From IMG/VR virus record IMGVR_UViG_2541047758_000018: a stretch of 34,871 bases of DNA. The stretch is one strand, 5' to 3'. Below, piece by piece: positions 2,322 to 34,871 of the stretch. This DNA comes from a virus (taxonomy: Duplodnaviria > Heunggongvirae > Uroviricota > Caudoviricetes). The translations under genes and the position numbers were made by a program. Position 1 is the stretch's first letter. The number at the start of each line of letters is the position of its first letter. The notes beneath the pieces were generated by a model, which saw nothing but the letters and a program-made list of their open reading frames with translations, made no database searches and had not been told where the DNA came from.

Positions 2322-2336
2322 AGTAGCTAACTATTC

Positions 2337-3070: not shown

Positions 3071-3082
3071 CGGAGACTGAAA

Positions 3083-4544: not shown

Positions 4545-4550
4545 GTGCCG

Positions 4551-4596: not shown

Positions 4597-4599
4597 CGC

Positions 4600-4730: not shown

Positions 4731-4746
4731 ACAAGGAGGCTGCCAC

Positions 4747-6412: not shown

Positions 6413-6422
6413 GGATGGAGCC

Positions 6423-6764: not shown

Positions 6765-7128
6765 AAATGCAGAAATGGCGCTTAGCTCCGCAATCGGAGA
6801 GCAGGTGGCAAAGATTGCTGGTGCTGTGTGGATTCATAACCTTCATTCTACTGGTGAAGAGAAAATGGCAATTCAGACGCCAGAGGGACGCACCATTACT
6901 ACATCTCTGAAGCCGTCAGATGTTTGTGATCTGATTTGCGCATTCATGTACCCAGCAATGAGGACTGTCCACGGCGATAAGTGGAAACTTGCGACAACCG
7001 CTGAATTTGATATGTGGCTAAACAATGATGGCATGCTGACTGATTACGGAATAACCAAGTGGCAGATGCTGGTTAGCCATATCGCAAACGCTATAGACCA
7101 CGTGGGGTACGGTGATGCGAAACATTGA
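6757..7128 (+). CDS. Hypothetical protein (123 aa)
   Basis: Overlaps the upstream ORF by 8 nt. Its own stop overlaps the primase start region. Confidence 0.65.
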   Translation: MRENAEMALSSAIGEQVAKIAGAVWIHNLHSTGEEKMAIQTPEGRTITTSLKPSDVCDLICAFMYPAMRTVHGDKWKLATTAEFDMWLNNDGMLTDYGITKWQMLVSHIANAIDHVGYGDAKH

Positions 7129-9871: not shown

Positions 9872-9894
9872 GCTTCTTCATGTGCGTAGAAAAG

Positions 9895-10009
9895 GTGTTG
9901 GTTCAGTTGGTTCAGTTGGTTCAATTTGTAAAGAGTATTGTTTTATAAGGATTTTATTCTTTTTATTGAACCAACACTGAACCAACAACACGGTATTTTG
10001 AACCAACAC
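9895..10009. repeat. Iteron cluster, candidate replication origin
   Basis: Three perfect tandem GTTGGTTCA 9-mers (9897-9905, 9906-9914, 9915-9923). A 43-bp AT-rich spacer follows, then three inverted copies TGAACCAAC (9967-9975, 9978-9986, 9999-10007). The cluster lies immediately 3' of the primase-helicase gene. Confidence 0.6.
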
Positions 10010-10327
10010 AATGTGACTGAATTGATGCGCACAACACCTGGCTGGCATCAGAGAGTGTTTTACGAGACTTTCGTAAAATCCTGTGTACAAGGGCGTGACG
10101 TTTTTGAAAGTGAGCACTACGAAATTTTCGTAGTTCAAAAAACAGCCTCTGAGAAGTTGTTATGCCTGTTCAGCAAACCATCCGCATAGCTGATCGCGAA
10201 TCAAATTACCAATGGAGCCAGAAGCAAGGGCAGAACTGAAAAGCACCTGCCGTGAAGAGTAATGCGATACCATAAATATAGTTTTTAGAGTCCATAAAAA
10301 ACCTGTCAAAACCTGACACACAGAACG

Positions 10328-10361
10328 ATGCCACCAGCTACTGAGCGGTGGCATTTTTTTT
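10328..10361 (+). terminator. Rho-independent terminator
   Basis: ATGCCACC (10328-10335), 11-nt loop, GGTGGCAT (10347-10354), then a run of T to 10361. Confidence 0.75.
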
Positions 10362-10456
10362 GTGCTATTTGTTTCATATTTTGCAATTACGATGATGAAT
10401 ATTGCGATTTGTGAAACTATAATAACTGTTGTTTTATACAGTTCTAAGGGGGCGTT

Positions 10457-10618
10457 ATGGCTATTTCAGTAAAGCCGGTATTGATAAGTGAGAAGCAAAT
10501 GGAAGCGATAAAGAAAATTCAGGAAGAGCAGCGTAAAAAATCAGGAATTGGAGTAGCGCCAACTCTGCATGAAATTGCACGAGGGTTAATAGATAAGGCG
10601 CTGGCAGGCTGTATGTGA
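10457..10618 (+). CDS. Small ribbon-helix-helix-like protein (53 aa)
   Basis: Too short for the ORF track. AAGGGGG RBS 6 nt upstream of the ATG. The translation MAISVKPVLISEKQMEAIKKIQEEQRKKSGIGVAPTLHEIARGLIDKALAGCM has a strand-helix-helix layout like Arc/CopG. Confidence 0.5.
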   Translation: MAISVKPVLISEKQMEAIKKIQEEQRKKSGIGVAPTLHEIARGLIDKALAGCM

Positions 10619-10634
10619 AAATGGATGGCATCGC

Positions 10635-11096
10635 ATGGAACTAAAATTTATTGATAACCCTGTGCGATTACAGGCCTTTCTTAACGAGCCAGGCAATACC
10701 GAAAATATTGTTGAGCCGGGGCACACGTACTACATCAAGCCTGATGCGGTATATCTCGGCATCTACGAAGGATTAGTGCTGGCTGGCGTTCATGAAGTGC
10801 GTAACTTCTGGCATAGCGTTGTTGAATGCCATGCGGTGTACGACCCCGGATTCCGTGGTGAATATGCACTGCAAGGGCATCGATTATTCTGCAAATGGCT
10901 TCTCGAAAACTCACCATTCCTTAACAGCATCACTATGGTTCCTGACACCACGAAATACGGACGGGCAATTATCCGTTTGCTTGGCGCTACCCGTGTTGGT
11001 CACCTTGATGATGCTTATATCAGATGTGGTAAACCCGTCGGCGTAACGCTTTATCAGTTAACTCGGCAACAATATAAGGAATTCAGCGAATGTTAA
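10635..11096 (+). CDS. Hypothetical phage-module protein (153 aa)
   Basis: Sits in front of the ejection-protein-like genes, and its stop overlaps the next start (ATGTTAA). It may be the P22 gp14/DUF2824-type protein, but I cannot confirm that. Confidence 0.65.
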   Translation: MELKFIDNPVRLQAFLNEPGNTENIVEPGHTYYIKPDAVYLGIYEGLVLAGVHEVRNFWHSVVECHAVYDPGFRGEYALQGHRLFCKWLLENSPFLNSITMVPDTTKYGRAIIRLLGATRVGHLDDAYIRCGKPVGVTLYQLTRQQYKEFSEC

Positions 11097-11767
11097 TTAC
11101 CCATATAGCTCATAAACATCTCAATCGTGCCGTATACGAAAAAGGCGGTGATGGTGGTGCCTCTAAAGCTCAGGCGAAGGCCCAGCAGCAGGCAATTGAT
11201 TTGCAGCGCGAGCAGTGGAATACGGTGATGAATAATCTCAAGCCGTATGCAGAAGTCGGATTGCCTGCTTTACAACAACTGCAAGGACTGATGACTCTGG
11301 AAGGGCAGAATAAAGCCGCGAATGATTTCTTTGGTTCTGGTTTATATAAAACACAGGCAGATCAGGCCCGTTATCAGAACCTTGTCTCAGCAGAAGCTAC
11401 CGGGGGGCTTGGCTCAACAGCTACCAGTAACCAGTTATCTTCCATTGCGCCCATGCTTTATAACAATTGGCTCAGTGGGCAAATGCAAAATTATGGAAAC
11501 CTGCTAAATGTCGGGATGAATGCGGCATCAGGGCAGGCAACGGCAGGGCAAAACTACGCCAATAATACCGGACAACTCTTGCAGGGGCTTGGCGCTATTC
11601 GTGCAGGTCAGGCGCAGCAGCCATCCAGTCTTGCGCGTGGTATTGGTGGGGCAGCATCAGGCGCTTTAGCGGGTGCGCAACTTGGTTCCGTTGTTCCTGG
11701 AATAGGAACTGCGGCCGGCGCTATTGGTGGTGGGCTTATTGGTCTTGTTGGGGGGCTTGGATTCTAA
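11090..11767 (+). CDS. Gly/Gln-rich internal virion (ejection/DNA-transfer, P22 gp7-like) protein
   Basis: 225 aa. The N-terminus includes EKGGDGGASKAQAKAQQQA. The C-terminus is a glycine-zipper-like hydrophobic tail, GGAASGALAGAQLGSVVPGIGTAAGAIGGGLIGLVGGLGF. Its position and composition match the first podovirus ejection protein. Confidence 0.55.
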   Translation: MLITHIAHKHLNRAVYEKGGDGGASKAQAKAQQQAIDLQREQWNTVMNNLKPYAEVGLPALQQLQGLMTLEGQNKAANDFFGSGLYKTQADQARYQNLVSAEATGGLGSTATSNQLSSIAPMLYNNWLSGQMQNYGNLLNVGMNAASGQATAGQNYANNTGQLLQGLGAIRAGQAQQPSSLARGIGGAASGALAGAQLGSVVPGIGTAAGAIGGGLIGLVGGLGF

Positions 11768-13086
11768 TGGCGACATGGCAACTTGGCGGGCTGCCTAGCA
11801 TGGCACCGCAAAATGATAATGCTCCTCGTTCTTCCGTTCCTCAGCCTGTGCAGTATCAGCAGCAGCCAAACGTAGGTTTAATGGCGCTACAGGGGCTAAG
11901 AGGCGTTGCTGAGATTAATCAGCAGGCGCAAATTTCCCAGCAGTTAAAAGAATATCAGGCACGGTTGGGTAGTGCGGTAGCTAATAATGATCGTGTTGGC
12001 GTGCAGAAGTTAATGGCCCAGTATCCCCAGTTTATGGCTGATTCTCAAAAACAGATGGGATTCATTGATGCTGAGCAAAATCGACAGACCGCTGACGCTG
12101 CCATGAATCTGCGTCTTGCGTCACAAACTGGAGATCCACTGACCATGCAGAAGGCCATTCAGCAGGCAAATCCAGTATTACAGCGATTTGGTCTTCCTGC
12201 TGAAGAGGTTTATCAGTCTTGGCAGAATGACCCACAGGAATTCAACAGAATCACTGACCTCATCCACCTCCATGCTGATCCAAATAGTTACTTTAGTGTT
12301 CAAGAGAAGCAGCAAGGGCAGAGCATTGCACAGCAGAACGCAGATACATCCGCATATAATGCTCAGGTTAATGCGGAACAGGGTAATCGACGTCTCGATA
12401 TGGAGCAGTTCAAAGTCCTATCCGATAACCAACTACGCACGAGAGAAATGGTTCTGAAAGCACGACTTGGACGTGCTCAAAATGACATCGAGAGAGACAA
12501 GCTCAATGCTGAACTGAGCAAGGTACAGCAGGCGAAAGTGGAGAAGATGAACGATAAAATTAATACTGTTGCAGGTAACATCGACTCCTTGAACTCTGCG
12601 CTTGAAGTGGGTCATGAACTGGCGGGAATTGTAGGGAAACATCCTTCGGCCGTTACCCGCTCGCAGAACTATAACCCCCTGACGCTGGGGTTTGGATTCC
12701 TTCCTGATGTAGCAGAAGACACACGAAGCCTACGCGCCAAAGCTGATGAATACAACCTAAAGGTTATTCTGCCTAGCCTCAAAGGGACTTTTGGCTCTAA
12801 CCCAACCGAAGGGGAAAGGGCTGCCCTTATGCAATCTCAAAATGGCATTAAGTCAGCAACCAGCAATGAGGCATTTTTGCGAGAGTTGAATAAAGCGCAG
12901 GACGTAATTATTCGAATGCAGAAACGACAGATTGCCGGGCTCGGTATTCCTGTAACCAAATCTAAGGACGAAGAAACTGATACCAAAATGCTGTTGCAGG
13001 ATCCTTCACTAGTTAAGGATTATGTGACCGCACATGGCTATCTGCCGGAAAGTTACTATCAGGCAAAACTTAAGGGATGGCAATGA
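11767..13086 (+). CDS. Gln-rich internal virion (ejection, P22 gp20-like position) protein
   Basis: 439 aa with 1-nt start/stop overlap. It is Q/N-rich and looks coiled-coil. It is the middle gene of the three-gene ejection set. Confidence 0.5.
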   Translation: MATWQLGGLPSMAPQNDNAPRSSVPQPVQYQQQPNVGLMALQGLRGVAEINQQAQISQQLKEYQARLGSAVANNDRVGVQKLMAQYPQFMADSQKQMGFIDAEQNRQTADAAMNLRLASQTGDPLTMQKAIQQANPVLQRFGLPAEEVYQSWQNDPQEFNRITDLIHLHADPNSYFSVQEKQQGQSIAQQNADTSAYNAQVNAEQGNRRLDMEQFKVLSDNQLRTREMVLKARLGRAQNDIERDKLNAELSKVQQAKVEKMNDKINTVAGNIDSLNSALEVGHELAGIVGKHPSAVTRSQNYNPLTLGFGFLPDVAEDTRSLRAKADEYNLKVILPSLKGTFGSNPTEGERAALMQSQNGIKSATSNEAFLRELNKAQDVIIRMQKRQIAGLGIPVTKSKDEETDTKMLLQDPSLVKDYVTAHGYLPESYYQAKLKGWQ

Positions 13087-15414
13087 TGGCACAACTGACA
13101 GAAAAACAGAAAGCCTATTCCCGTCATCTCGATGAAAAATATGGTTTCCCATCAGGGACGATGGAAACATTAGTTGGCAATGAATCTAGTGGTAACGGAA
13201 GTGCCGAGTCACCGAAAGGAGCTAGAGGATTTGCTCAACTGATGCCCTCAGTAATGAGTGATGCTGGTTATCGTGGAACAGATCCGCGCTCACTGCCATT
13301 TGAAAAGCAAATGGATATCGCAGCAAACCATCTCAATAAAGGAATGAAGCGATTTGGTGATATAGGTATGGCATTGGCTGGGTATAATTCTGGCTATGCT
13401 CGTATTAATGCCGTCAGAAACGGTAAATCTACACTGCCAGATGAAACGGCTAATTACGTAAGTAAATTTGCAGATGCTGGAATAATCCCTGATGACAGTG
13501 AAATCTTGCAGTTTGCACAAACCAGTCAACATCGCAATCTTCAGCAGCCTGACTACTCAGAGCTTGATAAAGAAATCTCTCAGGTGGGAGATATTTCTGC
13601 ATGGGAAGCAAAACGTCAGCAATTTAAGAACATAGAAGCAGGACTACCAACAGCCAGTTCATGGGAGCAGAAAAGAGCTCAGTTTCTCGCCGATGAAAAT
13701 GCCGGGGAACCGCAGCAGCAAGTAGCCAAGTCTAACCTTAATCCTGAGATGGAATATCTTTCGCCAGGACTGAAAGCTGCGCCAGAGCAGATGGCCAGAG
13801 GGATTGCTAATATACCGTTTGATGTAATGGACGCAGGCGTGGGGGTAGTCAATGCGGCGCAATCAGCCGGAGCATGGGCAGCTCAGAAGCTTGGTGTGGG
13901 TGATGGCACATACACGCCCATATCACCTGTCTTTCGCCCAGTAGACCAACCTACAGATCCATACGCGCAGGCTGGTGAGCAGCTAGCACCTTACCTTATT
14001 ACAGGATTAGGTGCAGGAAAGGCAGCTACCGCAGCTTCTTCAGTTGCCAACGCTCCACGTGCTGAACGTGCGGCCACAAAGGTGGCTAGTATGTTGGCAG
14101 AAAACCTGCCAGGTACATTGGTGAACGCCCAAAAGAACGGGCAGATCAGCCCAGAAGACCTAGCAAAAGAGACAGGTATTGGCCTAGCAGGATCGCTAGG
14201 AGCACGCGCTTTAATAAAGAGCGGACAGACAGCCAGTGACGTAATGCGAGATGTATTGCGGAGTAATACAAATCAATCAGGCCATGTGTTAGGGGCAGCA
14301 AATACTCTGGAAACCGCCAATGATGTATCGAAAGCAGCGCGTTCTGCCGTAGGCCGAGAGCATATCGCATCGCAGGCATCAAACGTCAGAGATGATGTCG
14401 CTAAGGCGGCGAAAATCACTGGTATTAATATCAACACCCTGACGCCTGGAATGCGCTCAGGTAGTCGTGGAATTGCCCAAGCAGAAGGTGTTCTGGCATC
14501 AACTCCTGGGAATGTTCAGGATGCTCACCTTACGGCCTTCAATGAAATATCCTCAAAGTTGAATAAGCAGTTGTCTGATTTCGGTGCTGAGTCTGGAAGC
14601 GCATCAGAAAAAAGCGCAGCAATTAAAGAGCGCATCATCGCGAGCCTCAGTGATATGAAAACAGCAGAGAATATGGCATGGGCAGAACTGCGAAGCACGA
14701 TGCCACGCGAAAGGATGAAAATGAGTAATGGGATGGCTGTCGTCCAAGCAGAAAAAGCAGCCAATGTTCCACTCAGCCCGGAGATGAAACAGTTTCAGGC
14801 TGCCAACAACCAAGGTGGCGGCATAACCTTCGACGGGATGAAGGCATGGCGTGCTAAGTTTGCTGATGCTGAACAAGCAAACACCCGGGCAGGTAAGGCC
14901 AATGCCGCCCGGATTGCCGGAGAAATGCGCAGAGCTATCACTGATGACATGCGCATCATGGCTGAAAAAGGAAACTTCCTCACAGAATGGCAGAAAGCTA
15001 ACGATCTCTCTAAAAGTTACATTATCGCCAAACAAAATGCCGAATCTGTTTTTGGTCGAGATCTCGCATCAGACGCTATGGTAAGAAAAGGTGCCGATAC
15101 GCTTAAGGCATCCGCAAACACTGGAACGGGAGCTTTTCACCGTCTTATCTCCGCGCTGCCGGAAGCAGAACGCCAACCTGCAATAGCATCTATTCTTCAG
15201 CATGCTGTGGCGCAGGGAGAGAAGGGAGGAATCGGTGAAGAGTCAGGTATCCAGTATTTTGCCAAGCTCATGACCCAGCAGAATGTAAACGCCATCAGTC
15301 GTCATGCGCCAGATCTCGGTAGAATGATGAAAGAGTTCGGTGTACTCGCTAAAGCCAGTACCAGACCGCAGCGATACGTAGAGCGCACGGGAAGAACAAC
15401 TGAGGCTCTCAAAA
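13077..15414 (+). pseudogene. SLT-domain internal virion/ejection protein, 3'-truncated by IS911
   Basis: N-terminal lytic transglycosylase motif: NESSGN...GARGFAQLMP...AGYNSGYARI. The native reading frame runs straight into the IS911 inverted repeat at 15415. The last 52 codons of track ORF 13077-15569 are IS-encoded. Confidence 0.75.
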
Positions 15415-15444
15415 TGAAGTGGTCAACAAAAACTGGCCACCGAG

Positions 15445-16592
<1,148 letters not shown>

Positions 16593-17052
16593 TATGGCAC
16601 CTGTGTTGTTCTGAGGTGAGCATATCACCTCTGTTCAGGTGGCCAAATTCAGTAAACCACTTCAGTTCCTGGAGATGATTCGTTGCTTGTGAGCAAGAGG
16701 TGGTCCGCTTTACTGGACAAGTTTTGCATTTGTTGAGTGGTGAAATGGAAGTAAAAAGAGCCCCTTTCTGGCAATGACTGAAAAAGTCAGTAGCGTGTGA
16801 CAGTAAAAACTAACATAAAGTGATTATCGTATGATTATGACAATGACTTATAACTTTTATGAAAAGAACAACAGAAACTATGAAACCATAGCAGATTCCT
16901 GAGACCATGTTTTTTGAGGTAGAGAAAATAATTCAAGAGTAAACCAGTTTGTTTTTTGATCAGTAAAGAACCATGCCTGATGTGAAAACGGGTAATCAAC
17001 ATTCAGTCTGCATGAGTGTCTGAGAATGTTGCTAATGTCGGTATGATACTAT

Positions 17053-20839: not shown

Positions 20840-21181
20840 TCAGCGCTTTCTGGCTTTTCGTCGGTCATTCAGCACCATTAGCCGGGCCTCTGCCTCTTTC
20901 TGTTCCTGTAGTGTCACTTCCCCGCACGGCAGCCCCTTCAGATCGTAACGGGCGCCATCTGCCATTAACGCACATGAATAGTGCGGAGACTGCACATAAG
21001 ACGCCACTGCCGCGTGTAATGTACCAGCGCCAAACGCCAGTTCTCTGATGGCGATATCCTGTATCAGGTCGTCAGGTATCTCAACTTTAAGCGGTTGGGG
21101 TTTTTCCCGGTTGAATAACTCAGGCCAGAGTTCCACAAGACGATTAATACGCTTACGGTTTTTACGCTGGCGTTTTGTCAT
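20840..21181 (-). CDS. FinO/ProQ-domain RNA-binding protein
   Basis: LVELWPELFN...PQPLKVEIPDDLIQDI...LHAAVASYVQSPHYSCALMADGARYDLKGLPCGEV aligns by eye with the ProQ N-terminal FinO domain (FPHCF...RPLKIGIFQDL...ALRLYTSSWRYL...RVDLDGNPCGEL). It has basic N- and C-terminal tails. Confidence 0.8.
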   Translation of the reverse strand: MTKRQRKNRKRINRLVELWPELFNREKPQPLKVEIPDDLIQDIAIRELAFGAGTLHAAVASYVQSPHYSCALMADGARYDLKGLPCGEVTLQEQKEAEARLMVLNDRRKARKR

Positions 21182-22074: not shown

Positions 22075-22509
22075 ATGAGTAAGAAGAAAATTTCTTTTGA
22101 AAATGAAGAGTTCATTACTTACCGGGCATTACTTCTGAGTATTGACTTTGTTAAAAAACTGGTTATAGAAATGTCTGATGAAGATTTAAATAAGGTTAAG
22201 GAAAACTTTGACATAGCTATTCAGCAACGTAATGAGCGAAAGGAAAATATGAAAGCTATCAAATCACTCATGGATGAACATGGTATATCTCTGGAAGATT
22301 TTTATTGTGAATTTGGCAAAAAATCACAGGCAGGCAGAAAAAGTGTGTCAGGAAGGCATAAATACGAGTATGACGATAACGGTAAAAGAATGTACTGGAA
22401 TGGACAAGGACGTCGGCCTAAGGCCATAGCAGAGGCTATAAAAGCCGGAGGTTCTCTTGATGATTTTCTTATATCTCAGGAAGTATCATCTGGTCCTGAT
22501 TATGAATAA
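22075..22509 (+). CDS. H-NS family nucleoid-associated protein (horizontally acquired paralogue)
   Basis: The C-terminus KYEYDDNGKRMYWNGQGRRPKAIAEAIKAGGSLDDFLI matches H-NS [28 protein letters not shown]...SLDDFLI. The N-terminus looks coiled-coil. Confidence 0.88.
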   Translation: MSKKKISFENEEFITYRALLLSIDFVKKLVIEMSDEDLNKVKENFDIAIQQRNERKENMKAIKSLMDEHGISLEDFYCEFGKKSQAGRKSVSGRHKYEYDDNGKRMYWNGQGRRPKAIAEAIKAGGSLDDFLISQEVSSGPDYE

Positions 22510-22925: not shown

Positions 22926-23498
22926 CTACATATAGATAAATTCATATTTCACGATATACGACCCAATTTTATTAACACGAGCTGTTACCCATACACCTGT
23001 CATCCCCTGTTTATGGTGACTGCGCGGGAACTCTTTATTTGTACAAAGTTGTATCCATCTGGAAGTGTTTTGATCTTTCAACCAGAGTCCCGCTTCACAA
23101 TGTCCATACTTTCCTCTTGATGGTCCCGGAAAAACAACATCATATTCAGATTCATAGCTAATAACCTTATCCGGAAAAAGATAAACACAGACATCGTAAC
23201 AGTTCAGACTCAGTATAAATCCAAGACAAAATCCCCCCGTGAATGCATTTAATAAATACTTTAATGTTCTGTTAAAGGTGCGGATATAAAATGCATAAAT
23301 AAAAGAAAGAGAACCGGTGGTTATACCGGTGCAAAAATATGTTGTCCATTCAGGTACCGTATTTTGTAAAACAGTATAATGAGATATGGCGGATGCCCAC
23401 AACATATACCAGCACAAACCACCTGCAATAAGATATGTTATTGCTGTGGAAAACCATTTCCTGTATTTATTTTCAGGGTGATTGTTTTTGCCCATCAA
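22926..23498 (-). CDS. Membrane protein (about 4 TM helices plus a C-terminal soluble domain), unknown function
   Basis: Four hydrophobic segments: ITYLIAGGLCWYMLWASAI, YFCTGITTGSLSFIYAFYI, LLNAFTGGFCLGFILSL and a weaker fourth. It lies 97 bp downstream of the dGTPase-like gene on the same strand. Confidence 0.7.
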   Translation of the reverse strand: MMGKNNHPENKYRKWFSTAITYLIAGGLCWYMLWASAISHYTVLQNTVPEWTTYFCTGITTGSLSFIYAFYIRTFNRTLKYLLNAFTGGFCLGFILSLNCYDVCVYLFPDKVISYESEYDVVFPGPSRGKYGHCEAGLWLKDQNTSRWIQLCTNKEFPRSHHKQGMTGVWVTARVNKIGSYIVKYEFIYM

Positions 23499-23595
23499 CG
23501 CATTTCCAGAATATTTAAAAATAACCTGTCACCGAAACAGAATAAAGGCGCAATAACCATAACGGGAAAATATGCGCCTCTGGTAATCGACAGTG

Positions 23596-24849
23596 TTACT
23601 TCAGACAGTGAGTTTCCCATTCCTTGACTGCAAATGTATCCATCATACCTGAAATATAGTCAACCACTGCTCGTTTTTTGCTGATTTTAAATATATAGGA
23701 ATCTGGTTGGGGTAAGGTGAATTTAAGTTCAGGAGGCAGAAATTTATAATTCTCTCCTTCATTGTAAAAGTCATATAAATCCCTGATTATTTTATTTCCC
23801 CTGAACTCATAGGTGAGGATATTACGTTTTCGCATGATGACTTTAAAGAGAAGTTTTTTGAGCCCTTCGGATAACGCATTCAGTTTCCCGAATCCCAGTT
23901 CCTGAAAACCATTCAGGTTCGTTACTACAGAAATATCTGCAACGAGGCGATTGACAATATTTGAAGTTAACTCCTTGCGGAATATGATGGCAAATTCTTC
24001 TGAGGTTTTCAGTAAGTTAGCCTGAAAAGCGGTGTTTCTCGACTGAGTAACGATTTCCCTGAACTGTTCCCTCGCTCCCCGGAATTCGTCAGAAATCTGA
24101 AACTCATATTCAATATCTTCAATCGTGACCATGTTCCTGCTAAGGGCATCTTCCAGGTCATGCGCGGCATAGGCAATCTCATCCGCGAGATCCATTATCT
24201 GCGCATCAATCGTTTTCTCTCCGGGATTCAGATCGAGCTGATTTTCAGCAAGCAGGTTAATGTAAAAATAGTAATCATCATCATAAATGAACTTGCCGGC
24301 AGTAGCTGCAGCGCGGGGGATGGGATACTTAACAACCGAAAGTAAACTACGGTGAGTCAGATTTAATCCGTTGCAGTATGAAAATTTCTTCTCCAGTTTT
24401 CTCAGGATACGTAGCGCCTGTGCATTGCCTTCATAGCCGCCGATTTCTTCAGACAGTTCATTAAGCAGTTTTTCACCGGAATGACCGAAAGGAGGATTTC
24501 CGATGTCATGCGCCAGCGCTGCCAGTTCAACCACCACCGGGTTAACCAGTTTGAGGTCTGACGCGATACTTCGGGCGATCTGAGCAACCTCAAGACTGTG
24601 CGTTAATCTGTTTCTGTTGAATTTTTCAGGATCAATTTCAAAAAGTTGCATCTTTCCCTGCAGCCTGCGAAATGATGATGAATACAGAATACGCGCATAA
24701 TCCCGTTGATAATTATCCCGGCTTCTTGTTTCACCATCGGGGGACGGGTGCTCTCTGGTATCAGCAAGCGCACTGATAAGTTTTTGTTCCTGCTCTTGCG
24801 CAAATTCTTTTAATTCATTGCAGTACATATTTCTTCCTTTCTGGAGCAT
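23596..24849 (-). CDS. dGTPase-family HD-domain dNTP triphosphohydrolase
   Basis: RDYARILYSSSFRRLQGKMQLF, RLTHSLEVAQIARS, HDIGNPPFGHSGE and YEGNAQALRIL are the Dgt-family signature blocks. The ATG at 24828 (MYCNEL, preceded by AGGAAG) is a likely alternative start. Confidence 0.88.
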   Translation of the reverse strand: MLQKGRNMYCNELKEFAQEQEQKLISALADTREHPSPDGETRSRDNYQRDYARILYSSSFRRLQGKMQLFEIDPEKFNRNRLTHSLEVAQIARSIASDLKLVNPVVVELAALAHDIGNPPFGHSGEKLLNELSEEIGGYEGNAQALRILRKLEKKFSYCNGLNLTHRSLLSVVKYPIPRAAATAGKFIYDDDYYFYINLLAENQLDLNPGEKTIDAQIMDLADEIAYAAHDLEDALSRNMVTIEDIEYEFQISDEFRGAREQFREIVTQSRNTAFQANLLKTSEEFAIIFRKELTSNIVNRLVADISVVTNLNGFQELGFGKLNALSEGLKKLLFKVIMRKRNILTYEFRGNKIIRDLYDFYNEGENYKFLPPELKFTLPQPDSYIFKISKKRAVVDYISGMMDTFAVKEWETHCLK

Positions 24850-24978: not shown

Positions 24979-25845
24979 CTAAGTGAGGTTCTGGTTTTCA
25001 AATTGTTCCGGACTGAGGCCGCCACACCAACTGTGCCGCCGCCACCGATTGTAATCACATTCGATATAATTAAACACCGTTGCCCGCATTATTTCCCGGC
25101 TGATAAAGTGTTCTCCATGGATACATTCCACTTTCAGCGAATGAAAGAAGCTTTCCACGCAGGCATTATCGTAGCAGCAACCTTTTGCGCTCATACTTCC
25201 ACGCAGATTATGCCGCTTCAGTTGCGCCTGATAATCTGCTGAACAGTACTGGCCTCCACGGTCCGTGTGAACGATAACGTTCCGGGGCCTCTTACGCCGC
25301 CACAGCGCCATCTGCAGGGCATCGCAGGCCAGTTGCGCCGTCATGCGTGGCGACATTGACCAGCCAATAACGGCACGTGACCACAGGTCAATGACCACTG
25401 CCAGATACAGCCAGCCTTCATCTGTACGTAAGTACGTGATGTCTCCTGCCCACTTCTGGTTCGGGCCACTGGCGTAAAAATCCTGCTCCAACAGATTTTC
25501 TGACACAGGCAGGCCGTGTGCGCGGTAGCTGACCGGGCTGAACTTCCGGGAGGCCTTTGCCCTCAGTCCCTGACGGCGCAGGCTTGCCGCCACGGTTTTT
25601 ACGTTAAAGGGGTAACCCTGAGCACGCAGTTCATCCGTCAGGCGTGGGGCACCGTAACGCTGTTTTGACCGGGTAAAAGCCGCGAGGACAACGCTGTCGC
25701 AGTGTTGGCGGAACTGCTGACGCGTGCTTATCCTTGTCCGCCGCTGACACCACGTATACCAGCCGCTGCGGGCCACCCGGAGCACGCGGCACATTGCTTT
25801 GATGCTGAACTCAGCCTGATGTTTTTCAATAAAGACATACTTCAT
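24979..25845 (-). CDS. insF: IS3 OrfB (DDE transposase)
   Basis: [10 protein letters not shown]...[11 protein letters not shown]...[12 protein letters not shown]. The start overlaps the orfA stop. Confidence 0.9.
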
Positions 25846-26141
25846 TTCAGGCGCTTCGCGAAGTATGTCGCGGCCTTTTGGAGGATAGCCAGCTCTTCAT
25901 CCCGTTCTGCCAGCTGGCGTTTGAGACGTGCAATCTCGGTAGACATCTCCAGTTCACGTTCAGAAGACGTCTGCTGATTTTGCTGTTTACTGCGCCAGTT
26001 GTAGAGTTGTGATTCATACAGGCTGAGTTCACGGGCTGCGGCAGTAACACCGATGCGTTCAGCAAGCTTCAGGGCTTCACTGCGAAATTCAGGCGAATGC
26101 TGTTTACGGGGTTTTTTACTGGTTGATACTGTTTTTGTCAT
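25842..26141 (-). CDS. insE: IS3 OrfA
   Basis: [50 protein letters not shown]..., 99 aa. This is an internal start of track ORF 25842-26150. Confidence 0.9.
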
Positions 26142-26220
26142 GTGAGTCACCTCTGACTGAGAGTTTACTCACTTAGCCGCGTGTCCACTATTGCTGGGTA
26201 AGATCACCCTGTGAACCATG

Positions 26221-26297: not shown

Positions 26298-27278
26298 ATG
26301 ACTCTTTTGGTAACGGCTGAGTGTGTTGACGATCTGATAAACGATGTTCATCAAGCTATCCTAGCGGATGGACTCAGTAACGATCCTACAAAAGGATCAA
26401 CTCTAGAGATTCTTGGTGCCTATCTTGTCCTTACCGACCCCCGCCGAAGAATAAGTAGAACAGAATCCCGAGGAAAACTAATTAGTTGCTTAGGTGAATT
26501 TCTGTGGTATCTCTCAGCTCAGAACGATCTTGAGTTTATAAAACACTTCATACCACGTTACGCTGAATCCGCTGAGTCAGATGGGAAAATACATGGTGGT
26601 TACGGGCCACGGTTGTTTAATATGCGTGGTTTATATAATCAGCTAAAAAATGTCATCAACCTTTTGCAGGAGAAAAAACCTACCAGACGTGCAGTAATAC
26701 AGCTTTTCGATGCCTCAGACTTGGTGCCCTCAAAAACTGAACAGCGAGAATACGTAGATATTCCTTGTACAATATCTATGCAGTTTATTGTCAGATGTGA
26801 AGAGCTGCATCTATTTGTTTGTATGCGTTCTAACGATGCCTTTATGGGGCTGCCTCATGATGTATTTGCGTTCACGATGCTACAGGAATTAGTTGCCCGC
26901 TTGATAGGATGCGAATTGGGTCACTATCATCACTTTGTATCCAGCCTACATCTCTATAAAAATGATTTAGAAAAAGTGAAGGCTCTTCAGAAAGAGGGGT
27001 TCATGAGCACCCTACCAGTCATGGGATCGATGCCTGAAATGCATTCCTTAGATGATATCTTACCCCTGCTTGAGGCAGAAAAAGCTCTTCGAGAGAATAA
27101 GGAATTTGATATTGACACTACTTCCTTGAATGACTACTGGAAGGATTTATTGCGTATATTAAAAATCCACTTTTTGTTACGTTCACATACACCCAACCAC
27201 AAAGGACTAGCCTTCCAAGAGTTGGCTGCAATGAAAAATCAGGAATATCGGTTTATTTTTGAAGGAAGACTACAATGA
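26298..27278 (+). CDS. Thymidylate-synthase-fold pyrimidine C5-transferase (predicted cytosine-nucleotide methylase/hydroxymethylase)
   Basis: Aligns by eye to ThyA at GEFLWYL (E58), GGYGPR (Y94), TRR (R126/R127), IPCTISMQF (C146, here C157), CMRSND (R166/S167/D169) and SLHLY (H207/Y209). ThyA N177 (GLPFNIAS) is Asp188 here (GLPHDVFA). Confidence 0.8.
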   Translation: MTLLVTAECVDDLINDVHQAILADGLSNDPTKGSTLEILGAYLVLTDPRRRISRTESRGKLISCLGEFLWYLSAQNDLEFIKHFIPRYAESAESDGKIHGGYGPRLFNMRGLYNQLKNVINLLQEKKPTRRAVIQLFDASDLVPSKTEQREYVDIPCTISMQFIVRCEELHLFVCMRSNDAFMGLPHDVFAFTMLQELVARLIGCELGHYHHFVSSLHLYKNDLEKVKALQKEGFMSTLPVMGSMPEMHSLDDILPLLEAEKALRENKEFDIDTTSLNDYWKDLLRILKIHFLLRSHTPNHKGLAFQELAAMKNQEYRFIFEGRLQ

Positions 27279-28219
27279 AAAGACATAATCAAATCAGTCA
27301 GCTGGTTAGTAATTTGCAAAATTTTAGCCGCAATGAACACAACCTAAATGGTCTAAGTTCTCCTGCCTGCTTTGATGTTTTAGCCTGTCAGATTATCGAC
27401 AGTATACGTCGTATACGCTATGTGGAAACTCTTGCATTACGGACCGATTATATGACTCCGTTACGAAAAGAGCCGAATTCTGATGTTTTTGATCCTCTCC
27501 GCGCTGCCTGCCTTTATCTTCGTGACAACAATTACGATGAAGCCTGCTGGCTGGTTTTCCTTGCCACACATTTCGGCAAGAGTAACAAAACCGGCTGGAT
27601 TTTGTGTCGAGATATATACAGTGGACTCGGTACACAAACGTGGACATGGGATACGATAACTGATGACTTTGCTGCTTTTGAACAATGGTTCGCCAGCGTC
27701 TCTGATGAGTTGACAGCTAACAGTAGCCTAAGACAATATGGTAACCATCGGAAATATGAAACGAAGAAATATCACTCTCGTCGTTCAATACCTGCGGTTT
27801 TTCGCTCTTACATCGGATTCATTGGTGCTACACACAGTCATGAGGCTAGGTTTGCAGAGGCCAAGAGCTTTTCATCTTCACCAGAATCTTTATTCGAACT
27901 ATTGTATTCAGGGCTAAATGCCGTGATCTCATTTGGACGAACCGCAAAATTTGATTACCTAACTATGCTCAAGAAAACGGGACTTCTGGATGTAGAGCCG
28001 GGTCATGCTTTTCTGAATGGAGCAACCGGGCCCCTTCAAGGAAGCCGGCTACTTTTCAGCAATAGCCGGACTGCTGGTGACACAATAGACGTATTGAATG
28101 AAAAACTAGCTGACCTTGCGGCAATTATTCCTGCACCCTACTTGAGAATGCAGGTTATTGAAGATGCGTTGTGCAACTGGCAGAAATCACCTGACCGTTA
28201 TGTCTATTTCGGCGGCTGA
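27275..28219 (+). CDS. Hypothetical protein (314 aa), partner of the TS-like enzyme
   Basis: The ATG overlaps the TS-like stop (ATGA). I recognise no motif with certainty. Stretches such as EACWLVFLATHFGKSNKTGW and FGRTAKFDYLTMLKKTGLL remind me loosely of helical DNA-base-modification/glycosylase-like families. This is unverified. Confidence 0.75.
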   Translation: MKRHNQISQLVSNLQNFSRNEHNLNGLSSPACFDVLACQIIDSIRRIRYVETLALRTDYMTPLRKEPNSDVFDPLRAACLYLRDNNYDEACWLVFLATHFGKSNKTGWILCRDIYSGLGTQTWTWDTITDDFAAFEQWFASVSDELTANSSLRQYGNHRKYETKKYHSRRSIPAVFRSYIGFIGATHSHEARFAEAKSFSSSPESLFELLYSGLNAVISFGRTAKFDYLTMLKKTGLLDVEPGHAFLNGATGPLQGSRLLFSNSRTAGDTIDVLNEKLADLAAIIPAPYLRMQVIEDALCNWQKSPDRYVYFGG

Positions 28220-28221: not shown

Positions 28222-29304
28222 TCAGACGATATCTTCTTTACGGAATCTCACTTTAAACCGATTAAGGTGAGAAAAAGGTATATTACCTTCATGCTGCAAA
28301 TATCCCAGTACGATCCCTTTGGATACCCCCATTTTCCTAGCTAACCGGATGATCTCTTTCCAATGCCGGACACCATAGCGACTAAGTTGCTGCCGGTATT
28401 CTTCTGGGATAAGAACATCAACGGCAAATTTATCTGCTTCCTTTTCCTCTTCCGACGAAAGACTATCTTTACCTTCTACGCGAACTCGGACAGCTTCATG
28501 CAAGATGAGATGCCCAATCTCATGAAACAGCGTAAACCAAAAATGGTCATCGGTCAGATAACGGAAACTCATGACTAGGGTTGCGCGATCTGGTGTAAAA
28601 AAGCAGGTAGCACCACTTGCCCGACATCCCTTTGGCGTTGGCAACACAACGAGAGAAACTCCAGCAGTGGCGAGAAGGTCGCGAATGTAAGGGATAAAAA
28701 TCCTCATGTCGGGTTCATTTGTAGCTTTGCGCAGTTCTGGCAACAATGCTATCAGCACCTCTTTATCCCATACAGCACAGTTTTGGTTTGAGGTAAGTTG
28801 TGCAGCCCTAGTCAGCCACACCAAATCGGCCATAGGCTCGGTTGCCAGATTAAGAGATTTACGAAAAGCGACCAAAGGAGCATCTGACTGAATTTTATAA
28901 AAAAAATCATTGACGGAATTTATTCCGAAAAACGATAGGCAGTGCTGGAATTTACTTTCCCGAGTTGTAGTTTTGGGGATCCAACCAAACTCCATCATAT
29001 CACGTACAGGCAATGATTCGAGCCAATCATTATTCACTTTCTCGAGGTATCCAATTTGCTGGCGATAAGCGACTTCGCGCTTGATCCAGAAGTCTGTCGA
29101 TACGTTGAATAACTCCTCAAGCTTACAAGCCAGAGACTCATTGAGTCGGATTTTTCCTTCAAGAAGTTGCTGACCCCGGATAAGAGACAATCCAATCCTC
29201 TTACTCAGTTCTTCACCAGAAAGCCCATGTTCATCCATTAGATCTATAATTGTATCACCGGGTGGAGATACCCAGTCAGGCTGGAAGTCCTGCGTAACTA
29301 TCAT
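28222..29304 (-). CDS. HigA-like XRE HTH fused to an ImmA/IrrE-type zinc metallopeptidase
   Basis: The N-terminus PGDTIIDLMDEHGLSGEELSKRIGLSLIRGQQLLEGKIRLNESLACKLEELFNVSTDFWIKRE fits the HigA/VapI HTH pattern. The C-terminus carries HEXXH in TLFHEIGHLILHE, typical of ImmA/IrrE (DUF955). Confidence 0.82.
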   Translation of the reverse strand: MIVTQDFQPDWVSPPGDTIIDLMDEHGLSGEELSKRIGLSLIRGQQLLEGKIRLNESLACKLEELFNVSTDFWIKREVAYRQQIGYLEKVNNDWLESLPVRDMMEFGWIPKTTTRESKFQHCLSFFGINSVNDFFYKIQSDAPLVAFRKSLNLATEPMADLVWLTRAAQLTSNQNCAVWDKEVLIALLPELRKATNEPDMRIFIPYIRDLLATAGVSLVVLPTPKGCRASGATCFFTPDRATLVMSFRYLTDDHFWFTLFHEIGHLILHEAVRVRVEGKDSLSSEEEKEADKFAVDVLIPEEYRQQLSRYGVRHWKEIIRLARKMGVSKGIVLGYLQHEGNIPFSHLNRFKVRFRKEDIV

Positions 29305-29627
29305 TTCACGTCACCTATGAACACTAACCGTATCCGGCTAACTCGGGACCAGTTAATTGTATTATCTTGATTTTTGGGCTGAACTGTATTCCCACAGACA
29401 AATCCCATTTTTACATCACCGAGAATGGTAATTGTAATACACTCTTCCCCATCCTCAAAGCAGACCTCCGGCGAACCTACGGGCAACAGTAATATGTTGT
29501 CTGTCACGGAAAGATCGGAAAGTCGCGAGCGTAGTCTTGATGCCACTTTGTCACCAAAGATCTCATTTGCCTCATGCATACTCTCGCAAATAGTCCTTAA
29601 CTTCTTGCTTTGAAAGGTAATGAACAA
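29301..29627 (-). CDS. Small protein, weak HigB/RelE-like toxin candidate
   Basis: 4-nt overlap with the downstream HTH-peptidase gene. The N-terminus MFITFQSKKLRTICE...VASRLRSRLSDL resembles HigB 'killer' proteins, but the C-terminal catalytic-type residues are not evident. Confidence 0.4.
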   Translation of the reverse strand: MFITFQSKKLRTICESMHEANEIFGDKVASRLRSRLSDLSVTDNILLLPVGSPEVCFEDGEECITITILGDVKMGFVCGNTVQPKNQDNTINWSRVSRIRLVFIGDVK

Positions 29628-29770
29628 AATTATCCACTTTTATTTTTCTTGGTTGCTACGTTTATAGCAAACTCAACGCTCATTCACAAAATGAGATGTA
29701 GCGAATTAATGGACTCTGCACATATTAAATGTTAATGATGGACTTAAAATCACGGATTCGTAAGGGAAAC

Positions 29771-30034
29771 ATGAAAGGTAAACATCAAGACACTAAAGCC
29801 CTGTCTGACGTGCTAGCGGAAATGCAACGGCAGGATGCCAAATGGGGGGCAGACCGTAATCAAGATCCTTTTATCTGGGGAGCGATTCTCGGAGAAGAGG
29901 TGGGAGAATTTCATCAGGCTGTCCTCCATGATCGTTTTGGTGGTAAAGCAGCCGGTACCAGTAGGGAGGAAGCAGTACAAATTGCTGCTGTTGCACTGCA
30001 AATCATCGAATATTATGATCGCGTAATAGATTGA
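29771..30034 (+). CDS. MazG-like all-alpha nucleoside triphosphate pyrophosphohydrolase (87 aa)
   Basis: Internal ATG of track ORF 29729-30034 with an AAGGGA RBS. LGEEVGEFHQAV and EEAVQIAAVALQIIE resemble the two acidic metal-binding helices of small MazG-type enzymes. Confidence 0.6.
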   Translation: MKGKHQDTKALSDVLAEMQRQDAKWGADRNQDPFIWGAILGEEVGEFHQAVLHDRFGGKAAGTSREEAVQIAAVALQIIEYYDRVID

Positions 30035-30308
30035 TAAATTAGAATTAATCAACTAAGAGTCTTTTACACGCGAAGATGAACTCTGGCAGCCATCTACCTT
30101 CGTGGGCCTGTAGAACACATCTAATTGCAATACTCCCAGTTAATCACTAACCAGCCTCTCCAGTAAGGCTGGTCGATTAGGTTTAATTAAACAGATATAA
30201 CAAGCAATTCACTTGGTATTACGCGGTTCACACAGACTTCTTTAGTTGTGTCATATCCTATAACTTTCAGAGGCTTATTTACGGTATTATCACGAACGGT
30301 GCAAAAGT

Positions 30309-31174: not shown

Positions 31175-31457
31175 AATTCATTAATGATGAACTTGGAGAA
31201 AAGCTCCATCGTTTTATTGGCTCAAAAAACATATCCCATAGATGATCAGCCATACCTTCATTGGTTAGCAAGGTATCCTGTGAGTAGCCATGGCTGAAGA
31301 TGCCCATTGATGGGCGAAAACCAAGGATCTGACCGTTAGAGCAGTTATGTCGTTAAACACATCACCACCATATGCCATCCGGCTCACTTCGTCGGCCAAA
31401 TTAGTGTGATATTCTTTCCAGAAATGCTGTTGTATCCACGACATAAGGCGATGATTG

Positions 31458-34400
31458 ATGGAGCAGTCTCTCAATTTTGAAATGTTGCGCAGCCAGTGGC
31501 CGGAACTGGCTGAACTCGCGTGTATGGCGGAACGCTATGTTCACTCCGATCCGGAAAGTTGTCTGGTCAAGCTGCGCAACTACACTGAATTGATGGTGCG
31601 CTGGTTGTATCGTCAGGAGCGGTTGCCGGAAGGTATTAAGGCTAATCTTTACGATTTAATGAATGCTGATGTCTTTACCAGCATGATGCCGGAAGCCATC
31701 ATCATGAAAATGGATGCGCTGCGTATCCATGGCAACCGTGCCGCGCACGGCGGACGTATCAAAGCTAAAGATACTTACTGGCTGCTCAAAGAAGCGTATT
31801 TGTTGGGAATTTGGCTGTATGTTCGCTACGCCCACGGTAATGTTGATGACTGCCCCAAATTTACACTCCCTCCATTAACACAATCTTCAGGTCGTGCAGA
31901 TGAAAAACGTCTGGAAGATGCAATCAGGGCTCAGGATGAAAGCCGTGAGCGCGAACTGGCGCTGCAACGCGCACTACAGCAAGAACAGGAAAAGGCCGAA
32001 CACCTCACTCAACGCCTGAATGAAGCCAGAGCGCGTAACCAGCATGTTGCCGATATTCTCTCTATTGATGAAGCGGAAACCCGCCGTCGCCTGATTGACT
32101 CTCGCCTGCTTGCTGCTGACTGGAATGTAGGCGAAGGCCTTAAAAATACCGATCAGGTTACGCAGGAACATCCCGTTAAAGAACAACCTACCGCGACCGG
32201 AGACGGTTATGCGGACTATGTCTTGTGGGATGAGGCACACAAACCGCTGGCGGTGGTGGAAGCAAAAAAAACCAGCGTCAATGCCGAGCAAGGACGAATT
32301 CAGGCCCGGCTGTATGCAGACTGGCTGGAAAAAGAATACGGCCAGCGTCCGATCATCTTCTACACCAACGGCTATGATATCTGGCTGTGGGATGACCATA
32401 AAACTCATGGTTATCCCCCGCGTCGGGTGTTTGGCTTCTACAGCAAGGAAAGCCTGCAATATCTTATTCAACAGCGTGAAACCCGTCTTCCGCTGAACAG
32501 TGTGCCGCACGTAAAAGATAACGAAGGTAAGGCCGTTGCCGGACGTTTGTACCAGCTTGAAACCATTGCCCGTGTCAGCGAGCGGTTTACCAACAAATAC
32601 CGGCAATCGCTAATTGTTCAGGCTACGGGTACAGGCAAAACCCGCGTGGCAATAGCGCTAAGCAAACTGATGATTGATGCCCGCTGGGTAAAACGCGTCC
32701 TGTTTCTTTGCGACCGCAAGGAACTACGTAAACAGGCGGCGAATGCCTTTAATCAATTCACCAATGAGCCGCTGTATGTGGTCGGGAAATCGAAAAAAGC
32801 AGACAGGCAGAATGCTAGGATCTACATCGCCACCTATCCTGGTATGATGAAAATCATGGACCATTTCGATGTTGGTTATTTCGATTTGATCATCGCCGAT
32901 GAATCCCATCGCTCTATCTACAACGTTTACGGCGATCTGTTTAAGTATTTTGATGCCCTCCAGATTGGCCTGACGGCCACGCCGATTGACATGGTGAGTA
33001 AAACCACTTTCGGCCTGTTTGGTTGTGAAGGACGTATTCCTACCGCCAACTACAGCCTGGAAGATGCCATCGCCGATAACAATCTGGTTCCCTATGAGGT
33101 TGTCACGCACACCACAGAATTCCTGCGCGAAGGCATCAAACGGGAGAAATTAAGCGACGCACAAATCCGCGAGCTGGAAGAACAAGGCATAGATCCCAAT
33201 ACGCTGGAGTTTGATGGCAAGGCGCTGGATGAGGCGATCTACAACAAAGACACCAACCGCTATATCCTGCGTAACCTGATGGAAAATGGCCTGAAAGATC
33301 GGGACGGCCAGTTGCCAGGTAAAACCATCATTTTCGCCCGTAACCACAAACACGCGCTGCTGTTGAATGAATTATTCGACGATATGTACCCGCAGTTTGC
33401 CGGGCGCTTCTGCCAGGTCATCGACAATTACGATCCCCGCGCCGAGCAACTGATTGATGATTTTAAAGGGCTGGATGAAAGCACCAACAAAGAGCTGACC
33501 ATCGCTATCTCCGTTGACATGCTCGATACCGGTATTGATGTCCCGGAAATTGTGAATCTGGTCTTTGCCAAACCGGTCAAATCAAAAGTGAAGTTCTGGC
33601 AGATGATTGGCCGTGGTACGCGCCTCTGTCCGGGGTTGTACGGTTACGACGATAACGGCAAACCTCTGGATAAACAGAAATTCCGCATTTTCGATCACTG
33701 GGGCAATTTTGAGTATCACGAACTGCATACCGAAGAGGCCGAAGTCACAGCGACAAAATCGCTTGCACAAAAACGCTTCGAAGCGTGGGTTATGCTGGGG
33801 GCCGCTGCGCAACGTAAATTCGACAAACAGGCGGTGGATTTAGTTGCTCACCAGCTACGCGAGCAAATCAATGCACTGGATGAAAAGTCGATTGCCGTCC
33901 AGGAAAAGTGGCATCAAAAAGCGCAGTACAGCGATGAAAAAGTGCTGCGCCAGCTTTCCCCGAAAACACAGCAGGATTTGCTATCTGTCCTGGCCCCGCT
34001 GATGCAGTGGCTGGACGTGCGCGGGCAAAGCGACGCTATGCGCTTTGATATGGATATTCTGGCGGCGCAAACTGCCCGTTATACCAACCCGGAAGAGCTG
34101 GATGTGCTCTGGCCGGTCATCGTCGAAAAAGTGGAGCGCCTGCCGCCGCATTTGGCGCAAGTCCAACAGCAAGGACCGCGGATCAATCAGCTTCGTGATT
34201 TAGGCTGGTGGAAGCAGGCCAGCCTGGAAGAGCTGGAAGATATCCGCATTCATCTGCGCGGCATCATGCACCTGATGGAAAAAGACGCGACGCCGAAATT
34301 TGGTTCGATACAGGTGGATATTACCGAAGATGCGAACCTGATTCAGACGGAAAACCGTAAAACCAACATCCGCTCGATTGACTTCAAACTCTATCGCCAG

Positions 34401-34871
34401 CAGGTGCAGGGAGCGCTGGAGCCGCTGTTCCAGCAAAATCCGGTGCTGAAGAAAATCCGCAACGGCGAGCCTGTGACGCAAAGCGAGCTGGATGAACTGG
34501 CTAAACTGGTGCTGATCCAGAACCCTAACGTTGATATCCGGGCACTGAAAGAGTTCTACCCGCAGGCGACCGCCAGCCTGGATAAACTATTGCGTACCAT
34601 CATCGGGATGGACAGCGACGCGGTGGAAGTGCGCTTTGCTCAGTTCGCCGCTGATAACAGCCTGACCAGCCAGCAATTGCGCTTCCTGTCATTGCTGAAA
34701 AACCACATTCGCGATTACGGCACCATTGAAATGCGGCAGCTCTTTGAACAGCCTTTTACGCATATCCACAACGAAGGCGTTACCGGTGTGTTCCCTGATA
34801 TAGAACAGATCGCCCGCCTACAAAAGATAGTCGAAGAGCTGGGTGTTGTGACCGACGCAGCAACGGTATAA
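31458..34871 (+). CDS. hsdR: Type I restriction endonuclease R subunit
   Basis: PD-(D/E)xK nuclease YADYVLWDE...AVVEAKK. Helicase motifs are QATGTGKT, IIADESHR, LTATP and QMIGRGTR. The C-terminal region is of the EcoEI_R_C kind, and there is an N-terminal helical domain of about 130 aa (DUF4145-like). ATG at 31458; the track starts at TTG 31455. The stop is the last base of the window. Confidence 0.92.
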   Translation: MEQSLNFEMLRSQWPELAELACMAERYVHSDPESCLVKLRNYTELMVRWLYRQERLPEGIKANLYDLMNADVFTSMMPEAIIMKMDALRIHGNRAAHGGRIKAKDTYWLLKEAYLLGIWLYVRYAHGNVDDCPKFTLPPLTQSSGRADEKRLEDAIRAQDESRERELALQRALQQEQEKAEHLTQRLNEARARNQHVADILSIDEAETRRRLIDSRLLAADWNVGEGLKNTDQVTQEHPVKEQPTATGDGYADYVLWDEAHKPLAVVEAKKTSVNAEQGRIQARLYADWLEKEYGQRPIIFYTNGYDIWLWDDHKTHGYPPRRVFGFYSKESLQYLIQQRETRLPLNSVPHVKDNEGKAVAGRLYQLETIARVSERFTNKYRQSLIVQATGTGKTRVAIALSKLMIDARWVKRVLFLCDRKELRKQAANAFNQFTNEPLYVVGKSKKADRQNARIYIATYPGMMKIMDHFDVGYFDLIIADESHRSIYNVYGDLFKYFDALQIGLTATPIDMVSKTTFGLFGCEGRIPTANYSLEDAIADNNLVPYEVVTHTTEFLREGIKREKLSDAQIRELEEQGIDPNTLEFDGKALDEAIYNKDTNRYILRNLMENGLKDRDGQLPGKTIIFARNHKHALLLNELFDDMYPQFAGRFCQVIDNYDPRAEQLIDDFKGLDESTNKELTIAISVDMLDTGIDVPEIVNLVFAKPVKSKVKFWQMIGRGTRLCPGLYGYDDNGKPLDKQKFRIFDHWGNFEYHELHTEEAEVTATKSLAQKRFEAWVMLGAAAQRKFDKQAVDLVAHQLREQINALDEKSIAVQEKWHQKAQYSDEKVLRQLSPKTQQDLLSVLAPLMQWLDVRGQSDAMRFDMDILAAQTARYTNPEELDVLWPVIVEKVERLPPHLAQVQQQGPRINQLRDLGWWKQASLEELEDIRIHLRGIMHLMEKDATPKFGSIQVDITEDANLIQTENRKTNIRSIDFKLYRQQVQGALEPLFQQNPVLKKIRNGEPVTQSELDELAKLVLIQNPNVDIRALKEFYPQATASLDKLLRTIIGMDSDAVEVRFAQFAADNSLTSQQLRFLSLLKNHIRDYGTIEMRQLFEQPFTHIHNEGVTGVFPDIEQIARLQKIVEELGVVTDAATV

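Follow-up and report, generated by a model that had tools for sequence, protein, structure and literature searches.

Among the dGTP triphosphohydrolases (dGTPases) described in antiphage defence, the closest solved relative of the enzyme considered here is Vdg of Vibrio cholerae (DGT1B_VIBCH; PDB 9VWA, 9VWC, 9VWG), an octameric stand-alone enzyme which, expressed alone in Escherichia coli, protects against T2, T4, T5, T6, T7 and phiX174 and requires its octameric assembly for defence (Shi et al., Nat Commun 2026, PMC13519002). Four dGTPases were also cloned and assayed as single genes by Tal et al. (bioRxiv 10.1101/2021.04.26.441389). The one described defence enzyme of the dGTPase family with a dedicated partner gene is that of Clover, a regulated system in which the deoxynucleoside triphosphatase (dNTPase) CloA is combined with CloB, a soluble Pol-beta nucleotidyltransferase producing an inhibitory nucleotide (PMC12265719).

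We analysed two neighbouring genes, one for a dGTPase and one for a small membrane protein, in a stretch of 34,871 nucleotides recorded as a virus of the Caudoviricetes (IMGVR_UViG_2541047758_000018; this whole stretch is referred to as the window). A first-pass annotation, made from the sequence alone, had suspected an arrangement of the Clover type, with the membrane protein as effector or sensor for the dGTPase. We consider it very likely that the locus holds a single-gene dGTPase defence of the known type beside an unrelated orphan membrane gene, which the same annotation had mentioned as a fallback and which turned out to be the best reading. Since the two genes are adjacent only in one E. 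coli island, they most likely do not constitute a system, and their adjacency would be an accident of island assembly that was inherited within E. coli.

The dGTPase and its relationship to Vdg

The window DNA corresponds to a chromosomal island of E. coli. Strain S3 and several other strains are 100% identical to it over the 2.5 kb that surround both genes, and the four window proteins that were compared with strain S3 are all identical to their counterparts. Both open reading frames (ORFs) lie where the first-pass annotation had placed them, co-oriented on the minus strand, and both are AT-rich (Table 1). Because a Shine-Dalgarno-like AGGAAG is located 5' of the ATG at 24828 (Met8), the RefSeq protein (WP_000271621.1) comprises 410 amino acids (aa) and the alignment with Vdg starts at the same Met8, this ATG is the likely start of the dGTPase. 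For the membrane gene RefSeq uses the ATG at 23495, which is adjacent to the TTG at 23498; the gap between the dGTPase stop and the membrane gene measures 100 bp with the former and 97 bp, as previously given, with the latter start.

The enzyme matches the Pfam families HD (1.2e-14) and HD_assoc (5.4e-15), scores 317 bits with TIGR01353 (cutoff 152) and is recognised by the PADLOC dGTPase model with 365 bits (1.4e-109). Its closest solved relative is Vdg (PDB 9VWA/9VWC; 2e-114), with 55.6% identity over 387 aligned positions. The residues named in the Vdg paper (PMC13519002) were mapped by alignment onto the window dGTPase. The catalytic His/Glu dyad is kept (H123/E126, equivalent to Vdg H114/E117), HD motifs are present at residues 114 and 230, and all nine dGTP-contact residues (Q, L, D, E, N, K, Y, K, Y) are identical. 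In the dAMP allosteric pocket seven of eight residues are identical, the exception being R31, which is replaced by Glu. At the octamer interface three of five residues are conserved (E236, R322, K323), H235 is exchanged for Tyr and K324 for Arg, and Y400 and K402 are not covered by the alignment. Of the four residues of the Vdg 16-mer contact, C127, C366 and N364 differ and D180 is identical. The two enzymes resemble each other in length class, single-domain architecture and occurrence in mobile or defence contexts.

From the family scores, the conservation of the Vdg residues and the single-gene tests of Vdg and of the dGTPases of Tal et al., we infer that the window enzyme is a defence-type, stand-alone dGTPase, a further member of the known single-gene kind, with a predicted dGTPase activity and a predicted defence phenotype. 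The proposal that it fits the described single-gene dGTPase defence is thus borne out through Vdg, a 55.6% identical enzyme that protects E. coli alone. By analogy with its relatives the window dGTPase would form an oligomer (an octamer in Vdg) and during infection would convert dGTP to deoxyguanosine and triphosphate. This hydrolysis would starve phage DNA replication and would require no partner protein.

Other members of the superfamily are more distant. The housekeeping Dgt of E. coli (PDB 4X9E and related) belongs to the same HD dGTPase superfamily and gives a partial match (1.9e-21), but it is a hexamer of 505-aa subunits encoded by a core gene, whereas the window dGTPase is encoded by an accessory gene. 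CloA is matched over part of the protein only (3e-25) and represents a different dNTPase clade. Clover was therefore considered and rejected as an identity for the window pair: the dGTPase is flanked by the membrane gene and an IS3 element, with no adjacent nucleotidyltransferase, and the membrane protein differs in kind from the soluble CloB.

At a coverage of at least 80%, the dGTPase gene is present in 359 complete E. coli genomes. This accessory enzyme, which occurs in ~6% of complete E. coli genomes, can now be assigned to the recently solved Vdg class. The 41 records that match the dGTPase at only 60-80% identity represent a different, prophage-borne allele.

Genomic contexts of the two genes

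The co-occurrence of the two genes was followed in both directions. For the forward test one genome per species was used, giving 33 membrane-gene loci, one in each of 33 other species; where the contig allowed it, flanking DNA of as much as 6 kb per side was included. With the dGTPase as query, tblastn gave a match within 6 kb in none of the 33. Clustering of the flanking ORFs identified a gene for a LysE exporter as the commonest shared neighbour (9 of 33 loci, mostly Pectobacterium) and revealed, in these 33 loci, no neighbour of the membrane gene whose conservation extends past the genus. Housekeeping genes predominate among the 117 nearest neighbours (two per side, 31 other species), with LysE, SBP_bac_3, FdhE, beta-lactamase, sulfate permease, chemoreceptors and LysR as the commonest Pfam assignments, and very few of them match PADLOC models. 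In metagenomes, the two proteins most closely related to the membrane protein are encoded beside a chemoreceptor gene and beside ParAB, respectively. Between the window and the loci of other species, nucleotide homology covers the membrane coding sequence and does not extend past it. In other bacteria the membrane gene stands alone among unrelated, mostly housekeeping genes.

For the reverse test, dGTPase relatives of 64-83% identity in eight other contexts were examined by tblastn for the membrane gene, and none was found in these eight. Three of these contexts are prophages: in Proteus the dGTPase gene adjoins the integrase, in Edwardsiella it lies within the prophage, and in E. coli it is found at the integrase end. 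In Klebsiella variicola its neighbour is a NACHT gene, and in Pantoea it precedes a SIR2_2 gene. A site bounded by the hyc operon and an HNH gene occurs in two variants, and in the last context the neighbour encodes a SNIPE/T5orf172 nuclease. The partnership thus failed, in both directions, the survey of homologues that had been suggested as a check.

Within E. coli, every copy of the membrane gene is located beside the dGTPase in this single island, and their linkage consequently reflects common descent and not repeated co-selection. The membrane gene reaches a coverage of at least 80% in 204 of 5,426 complete E. coli genomes, and a further 131 keep its 5' half only, the gene being cut after ~97 codons. 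In strain 746, the one genome with a truncated gene that was inspected, the break (window position 23204; ~7960-8010 in locus L002) is located at a perfect palindrome, CTGATGAATCCCCTAATGATTTT...AAAATCATTAGGGGATTCATCAG, which we take to be two IS10 ends back to back. The palindrome is followed by papA, sul2 and ISCR2 DNA, and the dGTPase of this strain is still annotated at full length.

On these comparative grounds, namely contexts of the relatives that share no neighbour and a truncated membrane gene in strain 746, the dGTPase appears to work as a single gene without an obligate partner. The role of the membrane protein as its effector or sensor could not be upheld in view of the missing co-occurrence, the end of homology at the coding-sequence borders and the truncation beside an intact dGTPase. 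The practical value of this result is negative, as it keeps a false system of dGTPase and membrane partner out of catalogues.

In Pantoea a gene with a SIR2_2 domain follows 147 bp downstream of a 76%-identical dGTPase on the same strand (5377-6684 in locus L043). These two genes may represent a different dGTPase-adjacent defence pairing.

The membrane gene could also have a role of its own in defence or superinfection exclusion, with the island as its only connection to the dGTPase. Many exclusion proteins are small polytopic membrane proteins, as is the product of this gene, and in the window it is located in a defence island. Its family is patchy and horizontally mobile, comprising 53-61 clusters with representatives on two Pantoea megaplasmids and on the plasmid-like contig with ParAB. 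However, tblastn of 50,697 phage records gave no match to the family, PHROGs and PADLOC models were not matched either, and the four nearest neighbours in 31 other species are overwhelmingly housekeeping genes, of which very few match defence models. We regard such an independent role as quite improbable. The superinfection-exclusion function put forward in the first-pass annotation is unsupported, because the phage records hold no match, and a prophage-encoded exclusion protein was rejected on the same result together with the lack of a PHROG match and the mostly housekeeping neighbours elsewhere.

The membrane protein

The membrane gene is a genuine gene of a rare orphan inner-membrane family. 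It is under purifying selection, the ratio of non-synonymous to synonymous substitution rates (dN/dS) being 0.08-0.15 in comparison with seven orthologues, and its homologues form 61 clusters, all of ~190 aa, from Enterobacterales and a few Pseudomonas. Among 1.84 billion representatives, only 53 clusters and no domain fusions were retrieved by a profile search. Nothing significant was found for the protein in Pfam, NCBIfam, PADLOC and PHROGs; a sub-threshold hit to Voltage_CLC (Pfam, 0.0066) was treated as noise of the hydrophobic segments. Likewise, a sequence-profile search of the PDB with the family alignment gave chance matches only (E > 1).

The AlphaFold2 model, with a predicted local distance difference test score (pLDDT) of 82.6 overall and 83.6 in the C-terminal domain, shows three helices (residues 10-38, 49-71 and 78-106) followed by an all-beta domain of ~80 aa (residues 110-187) with an OB-like beta-barrel. 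The prediction of a membrane protein with a soluble tail in the first-pass annotation agrees with this model, but its about four transmembrane helices are reduced to three and its tail of roughly 90 aa is somewhat shorter. By hydropathy, helices 1 and 3 are strong and helix 2 is weaker. Lys and Arg are enriched in the N-terminus (mean 4.0) and loop 2 (2.8) relative to loop 1 (1.4), which predicts the N-terminus inside and the C-terminal domain outside. According to this model the protein would have a cytoplasmic N-terminus, three helices and a periplasmic barrel. Cys133 and Cys151, which are invariant residues of the C-terminal domain, probably form a disulfide in the predicted periplasmic barrel.

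The barrel weakly resembles those of DUF1093 (3npp) and YhhM/DUF2500 (3q6c), which are membrane-anchored proteins of unknown function. This likeness is consistent with a small envelope stress or ligand-binding protein unlinked to phages, or with an orphan immunity protein against a membrane-targeting toxin such as a pore former of the colicin or pyocin type or a contact-dependent or type VI effector. A small three-helix inner-membrane protein with a patchy distribution in Enterobacterales and Pseudomonas would suit such functions, and one metagenomic contig, a ParAB replicon, has the gene close to the immunity genes Barstar and Imm42. Since no toxin neighbour is conserved and sequence similarity to known immunity families is missing, we consider these functions very unlikely. 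The family of the membrane gene is very small, evolves under purifying selection and has kept its pair of cysteines, and nothing ties it to nucleotide depletion.

Transcription and the possibility of a lineage-specific operon

According to the first-pass annotation no obvious terminator separates the two genes. This is not quite right, as an 8-bp hairpin with a U-rich run was found by folding downstream of the dGTPase (Table 1) and is a plausible candidate for a weak intrinsic terminator. A scan of the intergenic gap for consensus promoters and terminators found neither; it missed the hairpin because the loop is larger than 8 nt. A clear long stem-loop is also present 3' of the stop in three of the four dGTPase orthologues that were examined in other species. 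The dGTPase genes of Proteus (5228-5300 in locus L037) and Klebsiella variicola (5240-5290 in locus L040) carry long perfect stem-loops just past the stop, with a stem of ~20 bp in Proteus. Judged from the sequences, such structures fit a self-contained single-gene cassette for each dGTPase, and the dGTPase and the membrane gene of the window would be transcribed separately.

Several observations weigh against a stand-alone antiphage dGTPase beside an unrelated gene. The two genes are co-oriented, their gap is just 97-100 bp, the candidate terminator is weak and a consensus promoter is lacking there, so that co-transcription by read-through is quite possible in E. coli. As all E. coli copies sit in one island, the comparative data alone are compatible with a lineage-specific functional link. 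The genomes with a truncated membrane gene possibly represent one or few clonal lineages, and the truncation therefore carries limited weight. Regarding the enzyme itself, the window dGTPase resembles those of Tal et al. 2022 (Sp-dGTPase and others; PADLOC dGTPase, NF041026) as a dGTP triphosphohydrolase of the HD superfamily in a defence island, but with 284.7 bits it stays below the cutoff of 400 of the NCBIfam model NF041026 (antiphage_dGTPase), which describes a narrow clade; it consequently falls outside this clade and nearer to that of Vdg. The defence role of this exact dGTPase is thus derived from its relatives.

A rival explanation is a lineage-specific two-gene defence operon, in which the membrane protein would sense envelope perturbation or phage DNA entry, or act as a second effector, and modulate the dGTPase. 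In addition to the gene arrangement, the AT-richness of both genes in a defence-rich island and the restriction of the E. coli membrane gene to the neighbourhood of this dGTPase agree with such an operon, and a precedent for a regulated dNTPase with a partner exists in CloA/CloB of Clover (PMC12265719). Nevertheless, neither the 33 membrane-gene loci nor the eight dGTPase contexts gave any co-occurrence, and the linkage in E. coli goes back to a single inherited island without independent co-occurrence. About 131 genomes keep half of the membrane gene, with an intact dGTPase in the one inspected. Furthermore, the soluble domain is predicted to be periplasmic, away from the cytoplasmic enzyme, and Vdg as the closest characterised relative acts alone. 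A two-gene operon is highly unlikely on this evidence.

There is also a slight chance that an octameric dGTPase in this island lineage is gated by the orphan membrane protein, which would have been recruited recently as a sensor facing the periplasm or as a membrane effector, or, as a weaker variant, that the orphan family itself is an undescribed envelope-level antiphage gene. If the recruitment were true, no earlier dNTP-depletion defence would have had such a coupling to the envelope.

Composition of the island

The island is a mosaic. The defence-like context named in the first-pass annotation is real and includes a type I restriction R subunit, an XRE-M78 gene, insertion sequences and prophage or satellite remnants (Table 1). 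The ORFs examined in 1-15569 included no identifiable capsid or tail genes, and this region resembles a satellite or a prophage in decay.

Table 1 Features of the window around the dGTPase and membrane genes
Feature	Position	Strand	Remarks
Integrase, AntA, Ash, P4-like primase (Zn-ribbon, Toprim, DUF927), P22-type ejection proteins (DUF2824, gp7, injectosome translocase, SLT-domain protein)	1-15569	+	
IS3-family element	15445-16628		cuts satellite/prophage region
CP4-type genes: YagK/YfjJ, AlpA-like, and the ProQ/FinO and H-NS genes of the next two rows	between IS3-family element and membrane gene		
ProQ/FinO-family gene	20840-21181	-	frameshifted in some strains
H-NS/StpA paralogue	22075-22509	+	AT-rich; converges on membrane gene, 416-bp spacer
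Membrane gene	22926..23495 (TTG at 23498)	-	189 aa from ATG, 190 aa from TTG
Stem-loop and U-rich run	23535..23580	-	8-bp stem GAGGCGCA/UGCGCCUU at 23580-23545, U-rich run 23544-23535; starts 15 nt past dGTPase stop; RNA fold
dGTPase gene	23596..24828 (ORF to ATG at 24849)	-	410 aa from Met8; full ORF 417 aa
IS3 copy (orfA/orfB)	24979-26150	-	~130 bp upstream of dGTPase; between dGTPase and thymidylate-synthase/aGPT-Pplase pair
Thymidylate-synthase homologue and aGPT-Pplase3/ADDT pair	26298-28219	+	4-nt overlap at 27275-27278
XRE helix-turn-helix and M78 (ImmA/IrrE) peptidase gene	28222-29304	-	resembles PD-Lambda-2_B, 3.3e-30
Unannotated 108-aa ORF	29301-29627		overlaps start of XRE-M78 gene
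101-aa ORF	29729-30034		divergent from XRE-M78 gene; phrog_24212 4e-37, no Pfam family
Type I restriction R subunit	31455-34871		

Among the CP4-type genes, the AlpA-like gene was recognised from its sequence and is labelled 'helix-turn-helix transcriptional regulator' in RefSeq. Genes for H-NS/StpA and ProQ/FinO proteins are typical regulators of CP4-type islands, and the two copies in the window could silence this AT-rich segment. The IS3 copy upstream of the dGTPase may affect dGTPase transcription. In E. coli genomes that lack this copy (e.g. A1.S1.65), a ShlB/FhaC two-partner secretion locus follows the dGTPase instead.

Beyond the IS3 copy, a thymidylate-synthase homologue is encoded together with an aGPT-Pplase3/ADDT protein, the latter with a family match of 4.8e-90. 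The thymidylate-synthase homologue (WP_000174035.1) matches its Pfam family with 5e-25 and stays below every NCBIfam ThyA cutoff. Thymidylate-synthase and aGPT-Pplase domains are known in phage thymidine hypermodification; here the pair sits in a bacterial defence island. In the DefensePredictor supplement WP_000174035.1 is listed as 'Predicted novel defense gene', and the DefensePredictor paper names aGPT-Pplase as a predicted, unvalidated defence domain. This pair is probably more novel than the arrangement of dGTPase and membrane gene. Together with the genes at 28222-30034 it may form one nucleotide-targeting module; the 101-aa ORF of this stretch partly overlaps a MazG-like gene in RefSeq (window ~29781-30044).

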